Positions 15,001 to 21,000 of a stretch of 64,000 nt of DNA are shown in pieces; positions within the stretch are counted from its first letter, which is position 1, and each line of letters starts with the position of its first letter. A program made the position numbers. The stretch is from Spirochaetia bacterium (GTDB lineage: Bacteria > Spirochaetota > Spirochaetia > SZUA-6 > Bin103): contig CBDAOI010000003.1 in NCBI GenBank assembly GCA_965198005.1, forward strand, positions 1,156,109 to 1,220,108, given 5' to 3'.

Positions 15001-18000
15001 GCCGGCGGGTATACTATGATGCGCGGCACATGCTTACACGCAACGGAAAACAGGAGTCCAATACCCTATGCCGACCATGACGGGCGCCCGCATGATGGCG
15101 GAACTGGCCCACGGGCACGGGATTACCCACGTGTTCTTCGTTCCCTACTTCGCACCGCGCGGCTTGATGGAGATGGAGTCGCTCGGGATCAAGCGGATTC
15201 AGACCCACGGCGAGAAGGCCGCCGCCTACATGGCGGACGGGTATGCACGGGTCGCGCAGCATCCCGGTCTGTGCATGGCCCAGGCGGTGGGTGCGGCGAA
15301 CCTGGCCGCGGGGCTGCAGGATGCCTACCTGGCCTGCTCGCCGGTGGTGGCGTTGACCGGACGGGAAGCGCAGCGCCACCAGCAACGGCACGCGTATCAG
15401 GAAGTGGACCACGTAAAGCCGTTCTCGGCGGTCACCAAGAACACCGCCTACGTCAACACTCCGGAGCTCCTGCCCACCTACCTGCGGCAGGCGTTCCGCA
15501 TGGCGGTTTCGGGCACGCCGGGCCCCACCCACCTCGAATTCGAAGGTATCGACGGGGGGTCGGTGGCGAACCGGGAAGCCGACGTCGAGTTGGGCATCGA
15601 GCCGACCTTCGCGCAGGTGCCGCCGTTCCGGCCCGAGGCGGATGAGGAATCGATCGCGCGCGCGCTCGCGCGTCTCGCCCAGGCCGAACGGCCGGTCATT
15701 GTTGCCGGCGGCGGCGTTACCGCCTCCGGGGCGCGCGCCGAGCTGGTGGCGCTGGCGGAGAAACTCTCCATTCCCGTGGCCACGTCGCTCAACGCCAAGG
15801 CGATGTTCCCGTCCGACCATCCGCTGGCGGTCGGGGTTCCCGGCGCCTACTCGCGCGCCTGCTCGAGTAGGATCGTGCACGAGGCCGATCTGGTGTTCTT
15901 CATCGGCAGCCACGCCGGGGGGCAGGTCACCTTGTACTACAACATCCCCGCGCAGGGCACTCCGGTCATCCAACTGGATATCAATCCGCACGAGGTGGGC
16001 CGCAACTACGCGATCGAGGTGGGGCTGCAAGGCGACGTCCGAAGTTCGTTGCGGCGCATGCTGGCCCATCCGGCCGCGGCCGGATGGGCGTCGCGCGCCG
16101 GTTGGATCGGCCGCGTGCAGCAGCTCGTCGCCGACTGGAAGGAAAGCGTGCGGCCGGAGGCGGAATCGGACATCGTGCCGATGCGGCCGGAACGTTTGTG
16201 TTGGGAGTTGACGAACTGCCTGCCTTCTGATTCGATACTGGTGTCCGACACGGGTCATTCCGGGGTGTGGACCGGGACGATGATCGATCTCAAGCACCCC
16301 GACCAGTCGTACGTCCGGTGCGCCGGATCGCTGGGATGGGGCGTGCCGGGTGCCATGGGCGCCAAGTGCGCGGCTCCGGATCGGCCGGTGGTGCTGTTTA
16401 CCGGCGACGGCGGAATCTGGTATCATTTGGCGGAGTTCGACACGGCGGTGAAGAACGGGATAAATACGGTTACCGTGGTCAACAACAACCATTCGCTGAA
16501 CCAGGAGAGGGGGGGCGTGGAGAGCATCTACGGCGGTCAGACTCCGGGCTCGGACGAGTTGTGGCTGTTCCCTGACGCGGATTTTGTTAAGATAGCCGAG
16601 TCGATGGGTTGTTTCGGGATCACCGTGCACGAGCCGAGTGAGTTTTCCGGCGCCCTCGACCAGGCGCTCACTGCCGGCAGGCCGGCAGTGGTAGACGTAA
16701 AGACCCACCTCGACGGCATTGCGCCGCGAGCGTGGACGCCTGCGTGACCCCGCGGCAAGGCGCGCGAGGCAGCACGCGACAGGAGGCCGATAGTGAGTAC
16801 GAATGAAGGCGAGATCGTCCTTGACGTAAAGGGGCTCAAGACCCACTTCTTCACCGACGAGGGTGTGGTCAAGGCGGTGGACGGACTGTCGTACAACGTC
16901 AAGAAGGGCGAGTTCGTCGGATTGGTGGGCGAGAGCGGCTGCGGCAAGAGCGTCAGCGCCATGTCGATCCTGCGGCTCATCCCCTATCCGCCTGGGATCA
17001 TCGTCGACGGCGAGATCAAATTCAAAGGCGAGGATCTGCTCCAAGCCACGGAAGCGCGGATGCGCGAAATCCGCGGCAACCGGATCGCGATGGTGTTCCA
17101 GGAGCCCACTACCTCGCTCAACCCGGTGCTGACCGTGGGCCGGCAGATTTCCGAGTCGCTGGAGTTGCACCGCGAAATGGCCAAGAAGGCGGCGCTGGCG
17201 GAAAGCGTCAAGCTGCTGGAGTTGGTCGGCATCCCCGACCCGGACCGGCGGATCAAGGACTACCCGTATCAGTTCAGCGGCGGCATGCAGCAGCGGATCA
17301 TGATCGCGATCGCGCTGAGCTGCGACCCCGAGGTGCTGATCGCGGACGAGCCGACCACGTCGCTCGACGTAACCGTGCAGGCACAGCTCCTGGAGATCAT
17401 CGCCAACCTGCAGCAACAGCTCGAAATGGCGGTCGTCATCATCACCCACAACCTGGGTCTGGTGGCGCGCTACGTGGACCGGGTAAACGTGATGTACGCC
17501 GGCAAGCTGGTGGAGGCGGGAACCACCGAGATGATCTTCGGCGAGCCGAAACATCCCTACACGATCGGTCTGCTGGCGTCGGTCCCGCGCCTGGACAGCC
17601 CGCGCCGGGTGGTGCCGCGGGTCATCGAAGGGCTGCCGCCGAACTTGGCGCATCTGCCCAAGGGATGCTCGTTCGCCCCACGTTGCAACTACGCGATGGA
17701 TCAGTGCCGGGAAGAGGAACCGCAACTGGAAACCGTGGTGACCGGCCACTACCGTTCCTGTTTCTACGACGCGAACGAGCTCAAACGCCCGCAACTGATA
17801 GCGGAGGAGGCGTAAGATGGAAAACGGCCACTTGGTCGATGTTGAAGGACTGGTCAAGTACTACCCGGTAACCGCCGGGGTACTGCGCAAGAAGGTCGGC
17901 GACGTCAAGGCCGTCGACGGCGTCAGTTTCCACATCCGGCGCGGCGAGACGCTGGGACTGGTCGGTGAGAGCGGCTGTGGCAAGACCACCACCGGGCGCT

Positions 18001-21000
18001 GCATCCTGCAGCTCCAGGACGTAACCGCCGGCAAGGTGATGTTCGACGGCAAGGATCTGGTGCAGACCAAGGGCGAAGAGCTGCGCCGCATGCGGCGGCA
18101 TATGCAGCTCATCTTCCAGGATCCGTTCGCCTCGCTGGACCCGCGCATGACCGCGGGCAACATCGTGGGCGAGCCGCTGCTGGTGCACAAGATCGCCCGC
18201 GGCAAGGAATATCGCCGCATGATCAGCGACCTGCTGCGGATGGTGGAACTGGAGCCGACGGTGGGCAATCGCTACCCGCACGAGTTCAGCGGCGGCCAGC
18301 GCCAGCGGCTCGGCATCGCGCGCGCACTGGCGGTGCGGCCGGCGTTCATCGTCTGTGACGAGCCGGTGTCCGCCCTCGACGTGTCGATTCAGGCGCAGAT
18401 CATCACCCTGCTGATGCGGTTGCGCGAGGAGCTGAACCTGACCTACCTGTTCATCGCCCACGATCTCGCGGTGGTGCGGAACATCAGCGACCGGGTGGCG
18501 GTGATGTATCTGGGCAAGGTCATGGAGGTGACGACCAGCGATCAGCTCTACGACAACCCGCTGCATCCCTACACGATCTCACTGCTGTCGGCGGTGCCGA
18601 TTCCGGACCCCGTGATCGACCGCACGCGCGAACGCATCATCCTGAAGGGTGACGTGCCGAGCCCGATGAATCCGCCGAGCGGCTGCCCGTTCCACACCCG
18701 TTGCCCACAGGCGGAGGCGATCTGCAAGGTGGAAACGCCGCAGCTCAAGCTGGTCGGCAACAATCACTGGGCGGCATGTCACTTGGTGGAGGCCGCAGAG
18801 TCTGCCTAGCAGGTATCGAATCAGCCAGGGACAATAGCGAAAGTACAGTGAGCGACTCGGACAACAAAGGTAAGGCGCCCGCGGCGGGCGCCGGGCAGAA
18901 GCCCAGGAAGCAGGGTACGGCGGTGCGCCGGGCGGGAGCCGGCAGCAGCGCGGGGGGCGGCAAGCGGCCCGCCGGCGGCCGGAGACCGGCCGGACGCAAG
19001 GGAGCGCGGCAACCGCCCCCATCGACCACCGCCACCGTCGTGCGTGCGCTCAGCGTCGTGCTGACCGTGCTGGTGGTGGTAGGCGGCGTGGCCGGGATCG
19101 CGATCTACCAGAACAACGTGGCGCCGTTTCAGACGGCGGTGCTCAAGGTGGACGACGCCGAGCTCAAGATGGGCTATTTCCTCAAGCGGGTGCGGCTGTC
19201 GGGGCAGGAGCCGCTGACCGTGCTGCAGGAGCTCACGCGCGAGATGATCATCGACTTGGTAGCGCCCAACCCGCCGTACGACATCGTCCTCACGGACGAG
19301 GACGTGGACCAGTTCGCGCGCGAGCTGGCGAGCGCCGGCGGGGCGCCGATCAACGATCTCGAGTTCAGGGAGTGGTACCGCCAGCAGGTCAACGACAGCG
19401 GCCTCGACGACGACGAGTTCAGGGACCTGCTGCGGCGCAATCTTCTGAGCTTGCGGATGGGGGAGTACCTGGGCGACCGGATGCCCACGGTGGTCGAGCA
19501 GGTCCATCTTCACATGATCGCGTTCGGCTCCTACGAGGACGCCCTCGAGATCAAGGAGCGGCTCGACGCCGGTGAGGACTTCCACGAGCTGGCGCGCGAG
19601 CACAACCAAGTCCCGGACCTCAAGCAGTCCGGCGGCGATCTCGGCTGGCTGCCGCGCGCCGCGCTGCTGCCCAACATCGCCGGCGTCGCGTTCGACCAGT
19701 TGGCGGTGGGCGAGGCGAGCCAGCCGCTGGCTCTGAGCCAGGCTTCGAGCCAGAATCAGGCGTTCGCGGTGATCCTGGTGTCGGAGCGGGCGGATGCGCG
19801 CCAAGTCGAGGGTGACGCGCTGGCGGCGGTACGGGCGAGCGCGCTGCCGCAGTGGTTCAGCCAGGAGTACCAGTACCACACGGTGGAGTTCCACGGCTTC
19901 AACAACGGCTACGACTCCGAGACCGACGCATGGGTGCGCTGGCAGCTTGCACGCATGTCCCGCCACGACCAGCCGCGCGAACCCCAGGGCCAAGGCCAAG
20001 GCGCTCAGGCCGCCGGTCCGTAGCTCCATAGCCGAGGCGCTATCAGATCTGGCTGCCTTCCTCTTCTTCTTCCTCGAGGCCGTCGTCGAAGGGGATGTTG
20101 CAGAAGTCGGCGAGGCGGGTGCCCGAGGCTCTGATTTCCTTGATCGACGACCCCTTGACCATGTCCAGGCCGTGCACGGTGCCGTTGCCGTCGACCACCG
20201 ACAGGATCGCGGTTCTGCGCGAAATCGCCTTCATCATCTTGGGGCGGTCGCTGTAGCTGAGCCCCGCCTCGCGCAGCAAAACCTTGTCCAGGTTGTCGAG
20301 CGGCTGGCGCTTGCGGGTATAGAGCACCAGGATTCCGACGTTCTTTTCGAACACGTTCTTGTTCTTGTCGAACACCCAGCGCTCGAGGAACAGCGCGCCG
20401 AACAGGCACGCGCCGATGATGATGATGATGATCACGCTGGGCTGGCGCACCGCCGCCGCCAGAAACACCGCGATCACCGCGAACACGATGCGAAAGCTGA
20501 CCGAGGTCGAGTAGACCAGACGGTCCGCGCTCACTTCCTTCAGAACCGGATTGAACACGCCGGTTATTCCTCCTTGGTCTCGTCGGGGGGGTAGGGGGGA
20601 TCCAGCACCAGGCGGGCTATGACCCCGAACCAAGTATAGTCGACCGTGTACACGTCGACCGACTCCAACAGCTTGATATAGTATGCCTGACGGTCCGGCG
20701 TGGCGTCGCCGAGGATGATGTTGATCAGCTCGCCGGTGTCGAGCGTCAACTCGATCTCCACCCTGGGATCGGTCAACCCGAAGATCTCGAGCTGCTCGTC
20801 GGTGGCGTCCTCGGCGATCAGCCGGTTGGCGCCGGGGCCGCTCAGCAGCAGGGGGATGCCGCCGCCCCACCGTTCCATGTTCACCTTGGGGCCGTCGGGC
20901 TGGTCGAAGTACCAGTACCGGTCCTCGTGCTTGACCCAGGCCTCTTCCATCTCGAGCGGCGGCAGCCGGATCTCCATCCGCGCCAGTTCGTCCATCTCCA

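Follow-up and report, generated by a model that had tools for sequence, protein, structure and literature searches.

Shared ATPases and the class of the D-F pair

The closest known cases to the locus described here are the CUT1 multitask ATPases, namely MsmX of Bacillus subtilis, MsmK of streptococci and MsiK of Streptomyces. According to PMC7658222, the motor of such a system is encoded at an orphan locus, incomplete importers made up of a binding protein and two permeases are encoded elsewhere, and one motor is proposed or shown to energise many importers; the same paper states that multitask ability has been reported exclusively in CUT1. The pair of genes analysed here, D (16793..17815, + strand) and F (17817..18809, + strand) of the window (the whole analysed stretch of 64,000 nucleotides), likewise lies away from permease genes, with ATPase-less importers encoded elsewhere. 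The CUT1 motors are MalK/MsmX-like homodimers that serve about 4-7 sugar systems, whereas here the motor would join two distinct oligo_HPY subunits of the Dpp/Opp type, with [4Fe-4S]-type C-terminal domains, into a heterodimer; its dependent cassettes would be more than ten times as numerous, and sharing is deduced from the genes. A Dpp/Opp heterodimer working at this far larger scale would be new.

In the solved Dpp/Opp importers, B pairs with D and C with F via coupling helices, as described in PMC12136057. Our pair has the same subunit classes and cysteine spacing as Escherichia coli DppABCDF and Mycobacterium tuberculosis OppABCD; these are encoded by single five-gene operons with a private motor, whereas here the motor stands apart from the permeases, at about 130 to 1. 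In Pseudomonas aeruginosa (DppA1-A5 with DppBCDF) and in Borrelia (OppA paralogues), several binding proteins reportedly share one translocator (PMC4206461 and PMC7822543), so that specificity is widened, as here, by multiplying one Dpp/Opp component; there, however, the binding protein alone is multiplied and channel and motor are common, whereas here S, B and C are all multiplied and only the motor is single. FhuC of Staphylococcus aureus, said to serve several iron-compound importers, and MceG, said to serve the mycobacterial Mce systems, also provide one ATPase for several transporters (PMC10147376 and PMC9947336), but belong to other ABC classes (type II importers and Mce), with a single ATPase gene and few partner systems.

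D encodes a DppD/OppD-type ABC ATPase of 340 residues (Pfam ABC_tran, 1.4e-29; oligo_HPY, 4.6e-21) and F a DppF/OppF-type ABC ATPase of 330 residues (1.1e-30 and 4.1e-19, respectively), the oligo_HPY domain (PF08352) being over the cut-off in both. The start codon of D is a GTG behind AGGAGG, 45 nt past the upstream gene, and F starts 1 nt past the D stop. A motif scan found Walker A, Q-loop, FSGGM signature, Walker B and H-loop in D, and Walker A, Q-loop, FSGGQ signature, D-loop SALD and H-loop in F; the Walker B pattern had no match in F, where the D-loop SALD directly follows that position. The scan also located Cys292/298/305/323 in D and Cys290/296/303/321 in F, a spacing which is that of the [4Fe-4S] ligands of E. 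coli DppD (284/290/297/315) and DppF (293/299/306/323), as listed in PMC12136057. Judged from sequence, D and F probably make up a heterodimeric ATPase that is catalytically intact and belongs to the Dpp/Opp (peptide/opine/nickel, PepT) class among type I ABC importers, each subunit with a predicted C-terminal [4Fe-4S] domain of four cysteines.

The top NCBIfam models were OppD and DppD for D, and OppF and DppF for F. The scores lie below both equivalog cut-offs (371.9 bits as compared to 575 for the OppD subfamily, 400.5 as compared to 540 for OppF), and by sequence comparison the pair is a member of the DppD/DppF-OppD/OppF class outside the named equivalogs (DppD, DppF, OppD, OppF, NikD/E and GsiA among others). 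The closest solved relatives of D are M. tuberculosis Rv1281c (OppD; 8j5q_D, 3.5e-134) and E. coli DppD (8z1v_C, 7e-94); in this genome (G000), the sole match to F at E<=1e-125 is F itself. RNA contigs from four sponge metatranscriptome runs of one study match D-F at 99-100% and bridge the junctions between D and F and between D and its upstream gene, with zero cover in some nearby bins; as contigs from a single study, they tell that the pair occurs in RNA libraries, and not how strongly or from which strand it is expressed. The host of the pair is a sponge-associated bacterium with about 130 three-gene import cassettes.

Cassettes and ATPase pairs in the genome

An earlier note on this DNA had described a large SBP_bac_5/BPD_transp_1 family with at least 100 full-length members of each gene type, and this was borne out. 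A phmmer search of stop-to-stop ORFs returned 126 full-length S, 136 B and 134 C genes, in addition to split and partial hits (12 and 66 for S, 12 and 73 for B, 9 and 104 for C), some of the partial C hits possibly belonging to other BPD_transp_1 families. PF00496 gave at least 133 matches, all over the cut-off and without stops, with 133 of 226 candidates scored. The units consist of an SBP_bac_5 protein with a signal peptide, devoid of a lipobox Cys, and two BPD_transp_1 permeases, i.e. they are S-B-C cassettes of the Dpp/Opp type. When a cassette of this genome was compared with NCBIfam, S came closest to nikA/DppA/OppA-type and B to Opp2B/Opp4B/GsiC-type models, all below their cut-offs; C was assigned in this genome through phmmer alone, and Pfam typed the cassette-type B (BPD_transp_1_N) and C (OppC_N) of G051 and G029. 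SBC is the dominant architecture, with 61 isolated clusters plus tandems, and 80 triplets, corresponding to 6.5% of the genome, were fully intact in a strict test. At least three cassette copies score identically to contig-end copies (e.g. C2:6050-7204 and C3:799606-800760) and may represent assembly redundancy, which leaves the order of magnitude unaffected.

That the cassettes have no ATPase gene was also confirmed, an ABC-ATPase ORF being present within 3 kb of two of the 80 intact triplets, neither of them Dpp-type. The number of ATPases near permeases, previously given as 10 of 51 loci within 3 kb, became 13 of 57 ORF rows near family permease hits on recounting. In the closed genome of a relative (G001), none of the 41 cassette-type B matches listed lies within 6 kb of any of 28 oligo_HPY matches, the smallest distances being 7.1 and 7.6 kb.

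PF08352 gave eight matches in this genome (18 candidates scored), i.e. the four Dpp-type pairs reported before, and D-F is indeed the one that stands alone: no permease or SBP gene was found near it, and the closest family permease hit is 125 kb away. The other three pairs had been called ordinary complete operons, a description that is only partly correct. The operon on C2 has the order S-B-C-D-F with F split by a frameshift; that at C4:55-67 kb has the same order, and a TGA cuts F before oligo_HPY; that at C4:710-722 kb (B-C-D-F) has both ATPases intact, and no SBP_bac_5 ORF was found beside it. The two disruptions of F are as in the present assembly and, with the genome 90% complete, further pairs may be missing. 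The figure of 4-5 hits per genome given earlier for relatives has to be abandoned: near-complete relatives of the same family (G001, G003, G005-G007, G009-G015, G017 and G018) hold 21-63 oligo_HPY matches (28 in G001), in every case more than the eight of G000.

Co-location, phylogeny and the coupling interface

The pair was said to have a clear counterpart in every expansion-bearing genome compared and to travel with the expansion. Of 30 relatives, 13 have a counterpart of D (79-84% identical), among them every one of the 10 genus members; the association holds in part, the pair being older than the expansion, with mismatches between orthologue and cassettes in both directions. The orthologue persists in G015 and G035, where cassette-type B is absent, and therefore the pair is not bound exclusively to this permease lineage; in G011 and G012 the orthologue is accompanied by one cassette each. 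On the other side, G022 (99% complete) and G028 (92%) have B-C-S loci of the cassette type with no ATPase next to them, and the pair has no orthologue there (best F matches 54-55% identical), so that other pairs can presumably serve such cassettes.

An operon with cognate permeases and a binding protein, absent for the pair in G000, is present for its orthologues (72-78% identical) in three other families of the order, where they share one locus with cassette-type S, B and C. The order is S-B-C-GH39-D-F on C11 of G029, with identities to G000 of 59% for B, 54% for C, 67-77% for pieces of D and 78% for F. On C12 of G051, B-C is divergent from S, which is followed at some remove by D-F-PpiC, D and F each being 78% identical to those of G000; on C3 of G072, C-B-S lies within 10 kb of D (74%) and F (72%). 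A residual linkage is visible in G005, G006 and G007, each of which has a cassette-type locus a few kb from the pair. In a survey of 92 genomes from the order, cassette-type B was found together with the F orthologue in 15, B only in 2, F only in 3 and neither in 72; either partner is present in 1 of 21 genomes of family f7 and in 1 of 25 of family f2, and each such genome has both.

Phylogenetic trees gave a clade of stand-alone-type D (14 of 48 rows, SH-aLRT 100), which includes G051 and G072, and a clade of cassette-type B (38 of 57 rows, SH-aLRT 100). The latter holds all 22 sampled cassette Bs of G000 together with the D-F-adjacent Bs of G029, G051 and G072, and the Bs of the three canonical operons of G000 branch well away from it. 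In the coupling-helix segment of B, identity to the cassette consensus is 87% on average in cassettes and 74-83% in outgroup cassette-type Bs, as compared to 33-46% in the canonical Bs of G000. A complex model of a cassette B with D scored 0.79, against 0.01 for the best of three controls (116 of 157 solved complexes attained this mark, as did 2 of 215 mismatched pairs), with a contact agreement between runs of at least 98% and a partner pLDDT of at least 81. The predicted interface sets the coupling helix against the Q-loop region; like complexes have been solved (E. coli DppBCDF and M. tuberculosis OppABCD), so that the pass may reflect structures already familiar to the predictor and shows likeness only. 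The predicted interface involves 28 residues of D, of which 21 recur in the canonical D on C2, 17 in that at C4:717 kb and 12 in that at C4:59 kb, which makes cross-service by other pairs compatible with the interface.

The proposed shared motor and the competing explanations

We consider, with a probability of about 0.6, that the lone pair is the ancestral partner of the cassette family and hence its likeliest shared motor. The earlier proposal of a shared motor gains from co-location, clades, co-occurrence and residual linkage as far as a cognate link to the cassettes is concerned. Gene content, architecture, orthology, outgroup co-location, co-occurrence and the presence of the pair in RNA libraries are what the data establish; physical binding, sharing, and exclusivity or at least main work by this pair over the other intact one are what we infer. 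D-F would have been the ancestral cognate motor of one permease lineage (cassette-type B and C), and in other families of the order it still shares a locus with just one S/B/C set. Within the present genus, S-B-C would have been duplicated over 100 times with the ATPase genes left behind, the binding proteins diverging (median identity of 46%) and the permeases, chiefly their coupling helices, staying alike. Each cassette would then encode a private binding protein for the periplasm and a private B-C channel in the membrane, and the channels would draw D-F dimers from one common cytoplasmic pool, B docking D and C docking F via the conserved coupling helices. One constitutively made motor would in this way power many importers of differing specificity.

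It is rather unlikely, in our judgement, that the motor is unspecific, with any available Dpp-type pair driving the cassettes and the lone pair one of several interchangeable motors (four pairs are on offer in G000 and 11-31 in relatives). The canonical coupling helices of B in G000 are unlike those of the cassettes, F is broken in two of the three other pairs, and a single specific pair is indicated by co-location, co-phylogeny and co-occurrence alike; yet the cassette-type loci of G022 and G028 exist without its orthologue, the canonical D on C2 has most of the predicted interface residues, and relatives with large expansions retain 14-31 pairs. G013 and G017, which have no orthologue, also fit interchangeable motors: among their SBP matches, 12 of 31 and 21 of 42, respectively, have no oligo_HPY within 8 kb, and each genome contains about four SBP-less D-F pairs. 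Loci without an ATPase, like lone pairs, are a general feature of the family, which may use several motors. A different explanation takes most cassettes as silent or decaying amplified DNA among mobile elements, the lone pair serving few and motor capacity for 130 systems being unnecessary. Part of the family is decaying, as seen from the many fragment hits (66-104 partial hits per gene type) and from the surroundings, the annotated neighbours of 20 sampled cassettes being mainly transposases, reverse transcriptases, toxin-antitoxin genes and Uma2 nucleases. The repeat unit has a sharp boundary at the C stop, and the GC content of the family genes (means of 62%, 45% and 74% by codon position) is about 60% overall as compared to 66% for the genome. 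Nevertheless, 80 triplets have all three frames open although S copies have a median identity of 46%, with no pair at 95% or above, and B and C copies are 70% and 66% identical, which argues for long purifying selection and not for recent junk; the signal peptides are intact and the coupling helix of the permeases is conserved. We regard decay of most cassettes as improbable.

The genes around the pair offer another set of partners. Upstream lies an acetolactate-synthase-like TPP-dependent enzyme (15068..16747, + strand; Pfam TPP_enzyme_N/M/C, NCBIfam matches below cut-offs), which was found beside the pair in none of 10 fetched loci of relatives (at least 45% identity over at least 100 residues); it is a neighbour in G000 only and is outside the system. 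Downstream, an ORF at 18701..20023 (+ strand, true start uncertain) encodes a membrane-anchored parvulin-type PPIase (PpiD/PrsA-like; Rotamase, 4.9e-09) with one hydrophobic helix N-terminal to the PPIase part. This gene is a conserved neighbour, following F in 9 of 10 fetched family loci and also in G051, with at most a putative role in the system. Pfam identifies a DUF4340/ABC_transp_aux (GldG-like)/ABC-2 permease block at 20564..23445 (- strand). In relatives the same-strand order is ATPase-ABC2-aux-DUF4340-D-F-PpiC, the block being inverted in G000, and in G051 it is D-F-PpiC-ATPase-ABC2-aux-DUF4340. The block adjoins D-F-PpiC in families f1, f7 and f2 and has no ATPase gene of its own beside it in G000, as expected if the pair partnered this system, or the PPIase, and not the Dpp-type cassettes. 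This is very improbable: in relatives and G051 the ABC-2 permease is directly preceded by an ABC ATPase belonging to that system, D docks onto the coupling helix of cassette B in the predicted complex, and the solved DppBCDF and OppABCD show that oligo_HPY ATPases act as NBDs in type I importers of the Dpp/Opp kind (PMC12136057). The block probably belongs to another transporter. Over the loci fetched from 10 relatives in the family, D and F show 78-86% identity to their orthologues and the adjoining PpiC, aux and DUF4340 proteins 45-62%, which favours the shared-motor reading.

Returning to the lone pair as the shared motor, we advance only tentatively the idea that over 100 different importers of the Dpp/Opp type in one cell could depend on a single [4Fe-4S]-bearing D-F heterodimer as their hub motor. 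If so, channels would compete for a common motor pool, and the entire uptake repertoire would be gated together by the supply of ATP and by the redox state of the two clusters; in E. coli, oxidation of the clusters dissociates DppBCDF (PMC12136057). Loss of the motor genes would have made the S-B-C module small enough for free copying, and copying would have allowed the binding proteins of the sponge symbiont to diversify towards compounds derived from the host, to an extent not known from the Dpp/Opp transporter class so far. As for substrates, the GH39 gene within the operon of G029 hints at oligosaccharides.

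The lone ATPase pair and the cassettes without motor genes

The two genes under study, D (window 16793-17815, + strand) and F (17817-18809, + strand), each encode an ABC_tran domain followed by a C-terminal oligo_HPY domain. The top models were OppD/DppD for D and OppF/DppF for F, both below the equivalog cut-offs, and the nearest solved chains to D are M. tuberculosis Rv1281c (OppD) and E. coli DppD. Both proteins carry Walker A, Q-loop, signature and H-loop motifs, so that their sequences give no hint of a dead enzyme. Each subunit has four C-terminal cysteines (292, 298, 305 and 323 in D; 290, 296, 303 and 321 in F), whose spacing is that of the ligands holding the [4Fe-4S] cluster in E. 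coli DppD and DppF (PMC12136057). A contig-database search with the locus of the pair returned relatives at 46-61% identity from many phyla. The earlier note described the pair as standing alone, and this is what we observed: the window contains no Dpp-type permease or binding-protein gene, and 125 kb of the contig separate the pair from the closest family match.

The genome (4.89 Mb in four contigs, 66% GC, 90.4% complete) gave eight oligo_HPY matches, which agrees with the four Dpp-type pairs previously counted. The statement that the three other pairs sit in ordinary complete operons holds only in part. The order binding protein (S), permease-B, permease-C, D, F was found on contig C2 and at C4:55-67 kb, but F is split by a frameshift in the former and stops at a TGA before oligo_HPY in the latter; at C4:710-722 kb B-C-D-F is intact, but no SBP_bac_5 ORF was found alongside. 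In this assembly both subunits are intact only in the window's pair and in that at C4:717.5-719.7 kb; the frameshifts in the other pairs could be assembly errors. The figure of 4-5 ATPase hits per genome did not stand, since near-complete relatives of the same family contain 21-63 oligo_HPY matches (28 in G001, a closed genome of 7 Mb), and this genome is thus the extreme of a trend and not the rule. The ATPase deficit is nonetheless real in closed genomes: among the cassette-type B matches listed for G001, 41 in number, not one has an oligo_HPY match within 6 kb.

Family loci were called from stop-to-stop ORFs with phmmer, using queries from one cassette. This gave 126 full, 12 split and 66 partial loci for S, 136, 12 and 73 for B, and 134, 9 and 104 for C. 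PF00496 had at least 133 matches (133 scored among 226 candidates), all in open frames of about 500-800 residues. S-B-C is the commonest architecture, with 61 isolated clusters and many tandems, and a strict test requiring all three genes intact left 80 triplets, which make up 318 kb or 6.5% of the genome. That the cassettes lack an ATPase of their own was confirmed: an ABC-ATPase ORF occurs within 3 kb of just two of the 80 intact triplets, and neither is Dpp-type. Of about 57 ATPase ORF rows in the genome, 13 have a family permease match within 3 kb, and six of these rows belong to the three Dpp-type operons. The cassette binding proteins have Sec-type signal peptides with no lipobox cysteine, so that they are periplasmic and the organism is diderm; the closest solved relatives of one of them are generic cluster-C binding proteins (E about 1e-34). 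Pairwise identities among the 80 intact cassettes have medians of 46% (S), 70% (B) and 66% (C), and no two S copies share 95% identity or more. This divergence pattern points to an old, diversified family under selection and not to recent amplification.

Some cassette copies at contig ends have the same score as internal ones (C1:5448-7945 and C4:1732488-1734985; C2:4160-7204 and C3:799606-802650; C2:776207-777184 and C4:1560917-1561894), and in the tree the B sequences of one such pair are identical. Either the duplications happened very recently or the assembly is redundant at these places.

Evidence for co-ancestry of the pair and the cassette permeases

A counterpart of D with 79-84% identity was found in 13 of 30 relatives, namely every one of the ten genus members plus three from the sister genus (G011, G012 and G015); in G013, G014, G016, G017 and G018 the best D match reaches only 49-53%. 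D and F are adjacent in all ten fetched 20-kb loci, across which both show 78-86% identity, as compared to 45-71% for the neighbour proteins. G013 and G017 contain another lone D-F pair (G013:C1:103501-105494 and G017:C2:546576-548569; loci L136 and L139), which was rejected as a counterpart: its F is 61% and its D 52% identical to the window's, it falls outside the orthologue clade, and the PpiC and ABC-2 synteny is absent.

When relatives were searched with one cassette B, the cassette-type B proved to be a distinct lineage. At E<=1e-60, at least 67 matches each were obtained in the genome under study, G001, G003, G005 and G006, 37 in G007, 18 in G008, eight each in G009 and G010 and one each in G011 and G012; cassette-type B also occurs in other families (G022, G028, G029). 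In three genomes, G029, G051 and G072, it shares a locus with D and F. Contig C11 of G029 carries a single operon, S-B-C-GH39-D-F. The B and C of this operon are of cassette type, with identities of 59 and 54%; F matches the window's F at 78%, and D has three frameshifts, its pieces being 67-77% identical to the window's D. On G051:C12, cassette-type B-C is divergent from S and is followed further on by D-F-PpiC and an ABC-2 system, with D and F each 78% identical to the window's. On G072:C3, C-B-S, a PPIase, an ABC-2 block, D (74%) and F (72%, frameshifted) all lie within 12 kb. In G005, G006 and G007 a cassette-type B-C-S locus is still found about 1-5 kb past the PPIase. A first result on co-ancestry had looked negative, as the D at G029:C18 (56-60%) sits with a B only 39% identical; no intact D homologue from outside the family matches better than that protein, and the true G029 orthologue has the frameshift-split D instead. 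The GH39 gene of G029 (L123:6637-8247, - strand), placed between cassette-type C and D, hints at oligosaccharide uptake by the ancestral system.

In the D tree (48 sequences), the window's D, the family orthologues and those of G051 and G072 form a 14-member clade (SH-aLRT 100), outside which fall the three other Ds of the genome and the lone pairs of G013 and G017. The B tree (57 sequences) has a cassette-type clade of 38 rows (SH-aLRT 100) that contains all 22 sampled cassette Bs of this genome, the D-F-adjoining Bs of G029, G051 and G072, and ATPase-less cassettes of G011, G012, G022 and G028; the Bs of the canonical operons are on the opposite side of the tree.

The co-occurrence of cassette-type B (E<=1e-95) and the F orthologue (at least 72% identity) was counted in 92 genomes of the order, this one included, and no statistic was attached because kin are not independent. 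Both are present in 15 genomes and neither in 72; B occurs without F in two (G022 and G028) and F without B in three (G015, G035 and the fragmentary G002). The informative part of this count is the isolated co-occurrences: in family f7 (21 genomes) either partner is found solely in G051, and in family f2 (25 genomes) solely in G072, both of which have the two together.

A candidate shared motor

The most economical history is that of an ancestral locus in which S, B-C and D-F would have stood beside the PPIase and the ABC-2 system. In the genus under study, the S-B-C part would have multiplied without its motor, while D-F would have stayed in one copy where it was, strongly constrained. On these grounds the window's pair becomes the prime candidate for the shared engine of the cassettes that the earlier note had proposed, with a probability of roughly 0.6.

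The coupling-helix segment of B, around DYIRTAW, is near-invariant in cassette-type Bs, including the outgroup copies beside D-F, and clearly different in the canonical Bs of the genome (33-46% identity over 54 residues). When a cassette B was modelled in complex with the window's D, the score was 0.79 (best of three controls, 0.01), a mark that 116 of 157 solved complexes and 2 of 215 mismatched pairs attained. At least 98% of contacts recur between runs, the partner pLDDT is at least 81, and the modelled interface sets the coupling helix (B 214-226 and adjacent residues) against D 90-126. Since similar complexes have already been solved, the model indicates likeness to a textbook interface and not binding by these copies, and it cannot distinguish the four pairs. 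Of the 28 predicted interface residues of D, orthologues keep 24-26 and the canonical Ds 21, 17 and 12.

Four findings argue against exclusive use of this pair by the cassettes. Cassette-type loci occur without the orthologue in G022 and G028, whereas G015 and G035 have the orthologue but no cassettes. In G013 and G017, sister-genus members that lack the orthologue, both ATPase-less Dpp-type loci and lone pairs are common: each genome has about four pairs with no SBP, and 12 of 31 SBP matches in G013 and 21 of 42 in G017 have no oligo_HPY within 8 kb. Lastly, the D of the C2 canonical operon has a similar interface (21 of 28 residues in common), so that these residues separate it poorly from the window's D. 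D-F might otherwise drive the neighbouring ABC-2 system, which precedes D on the same strand in seven of ten fetched loci; this is argued against by the ATPase that the system has of its own where it stands there.

Among ABC transporters, only a few sugar importers, whose ATPase is a homodimer, are established cases of motor sharing, and a 2020 paper (PMC7658222) states that all reports of it had come from CUT1. In the full-text literature, subscription journals lying outside it, neither sharing of a Dpp/Opp ATPase pair nor this expansion of S-B-C cassettes in sponge symbionts turned up; what would stand out here is the scale and the heterodimeric, Fe-S-bearing motor. If one pair does serve about 130 channels, motor sharing would reach another class of importers and a heterodimer that has Fe-S domains, and this would be a natural system for studying how one NBD surface fits over 100 coupling helices and how motors are competed for by the channels. 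Transporter repertoires in metagenome-assembled genomes would also be read differently, as cassettes without ATPase genes, at least 6.5% of this genome, are usually scored as incomplete. The testable picture is that of a symbiont multiplying substrate specificities cheaply.

Surroundings of the cassettes and of the pair

The flanks of 20 cassettes, every fourth of the 80 intact ones, were sampled. About half of the 109 neighbour ORFs scanned had no Pfam match; the annotated ones are mostly transposases (IS110, IS66, DDE, YhgA-like), reverse transcriptases, toxin-antitoxin and Fic/RES/AbiEii genes, together with Uma2 nucleases and DUF4143 ATPases. Catabolic enzymes are a minority (two MR_MLE; one each of amidohydrolase, GMC oxidoreductase, luciferase-like monooxygenase and SDR). 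The repeated unit breaks off precisely at the stop codon of C. A group II intron and reverse-transcriptase ORFs lie directly upstream of three of the 20 cassettes (RVT_1 ORFs in L113, L114 and L115), and an Rfam search of three cassette loci at gathering thresholds found no riboswitch or leader, the sole match being the group II intron RF02005 (L113:4594-4813, - strand, 182 bits). Between the upstream gene and S, locus L119 (contig C4) has a tandem array of four units, each about 120 nt long (L119:4183-4608), in a region that matches about 100 places in the genome, and the DNA upstream of many S genes is also alike when translated. This array could be a REP/MITE-like element or a common regulatory region.

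Downstream of F is a gene for a membrane-anchored parvulin-type PPIase (window 18701-20023, + strand), which combines a basic N-tail with a single hydrophobic helix and a rotamase domain on the periplasmic side; it follows F in nine of ten fetched family loci and in G051. As the system has more than 100 binding proteins that are exported, a periplasmic foldase adjoining its candidate motor may be suggestive. Beyond it, within window 20564-24602 on the - strand, is a block of DUF4340, GldG-like auxiliary and ABC-2 permease genes, which adjoins D-F in three families and is inverted here with respect to relatives. No ABC ATPase gene lies alongside this copy, whereas relatives have one before the permease; the ORF at that place (window 23442-24602) has a PhyH dioxygenase domain.

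The stretch is present in sixteen public runs of five studies, four of which are sponge metatranscriptome libraries of one study; the sponge habitat is taken from the run labels alone. RNA-library contigs match at 99-100% and span D and F, with pieces bridging the junction of D with the upstream TPP-dependent enzyme gene (16237-16954) and the D/F junction (16937-18008). These contigs, which lack strand, ends and level and may include DNA carry-over, are consistent with transcription in the host; their depth is unfit for ranking genes, and uncovered stretches, such as bins 9000-9633 and 10902-11535 with zero cover in any run, prove nothing. The TPP/D junction is bridged in three runs and, given the gap of only 45 nt (window 16748-16792), D-F may be co-transcribed with the TPP-enzyme gene in this genome; in relatives the upstream neighbour of D is another gene. 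Elsewhere in the window, positions 40001-44000 and 50001-52000 have a G+C content of 0.55-0.58, as compared to about 0.66 genome-wide, and may be foreign or mobile DNA.
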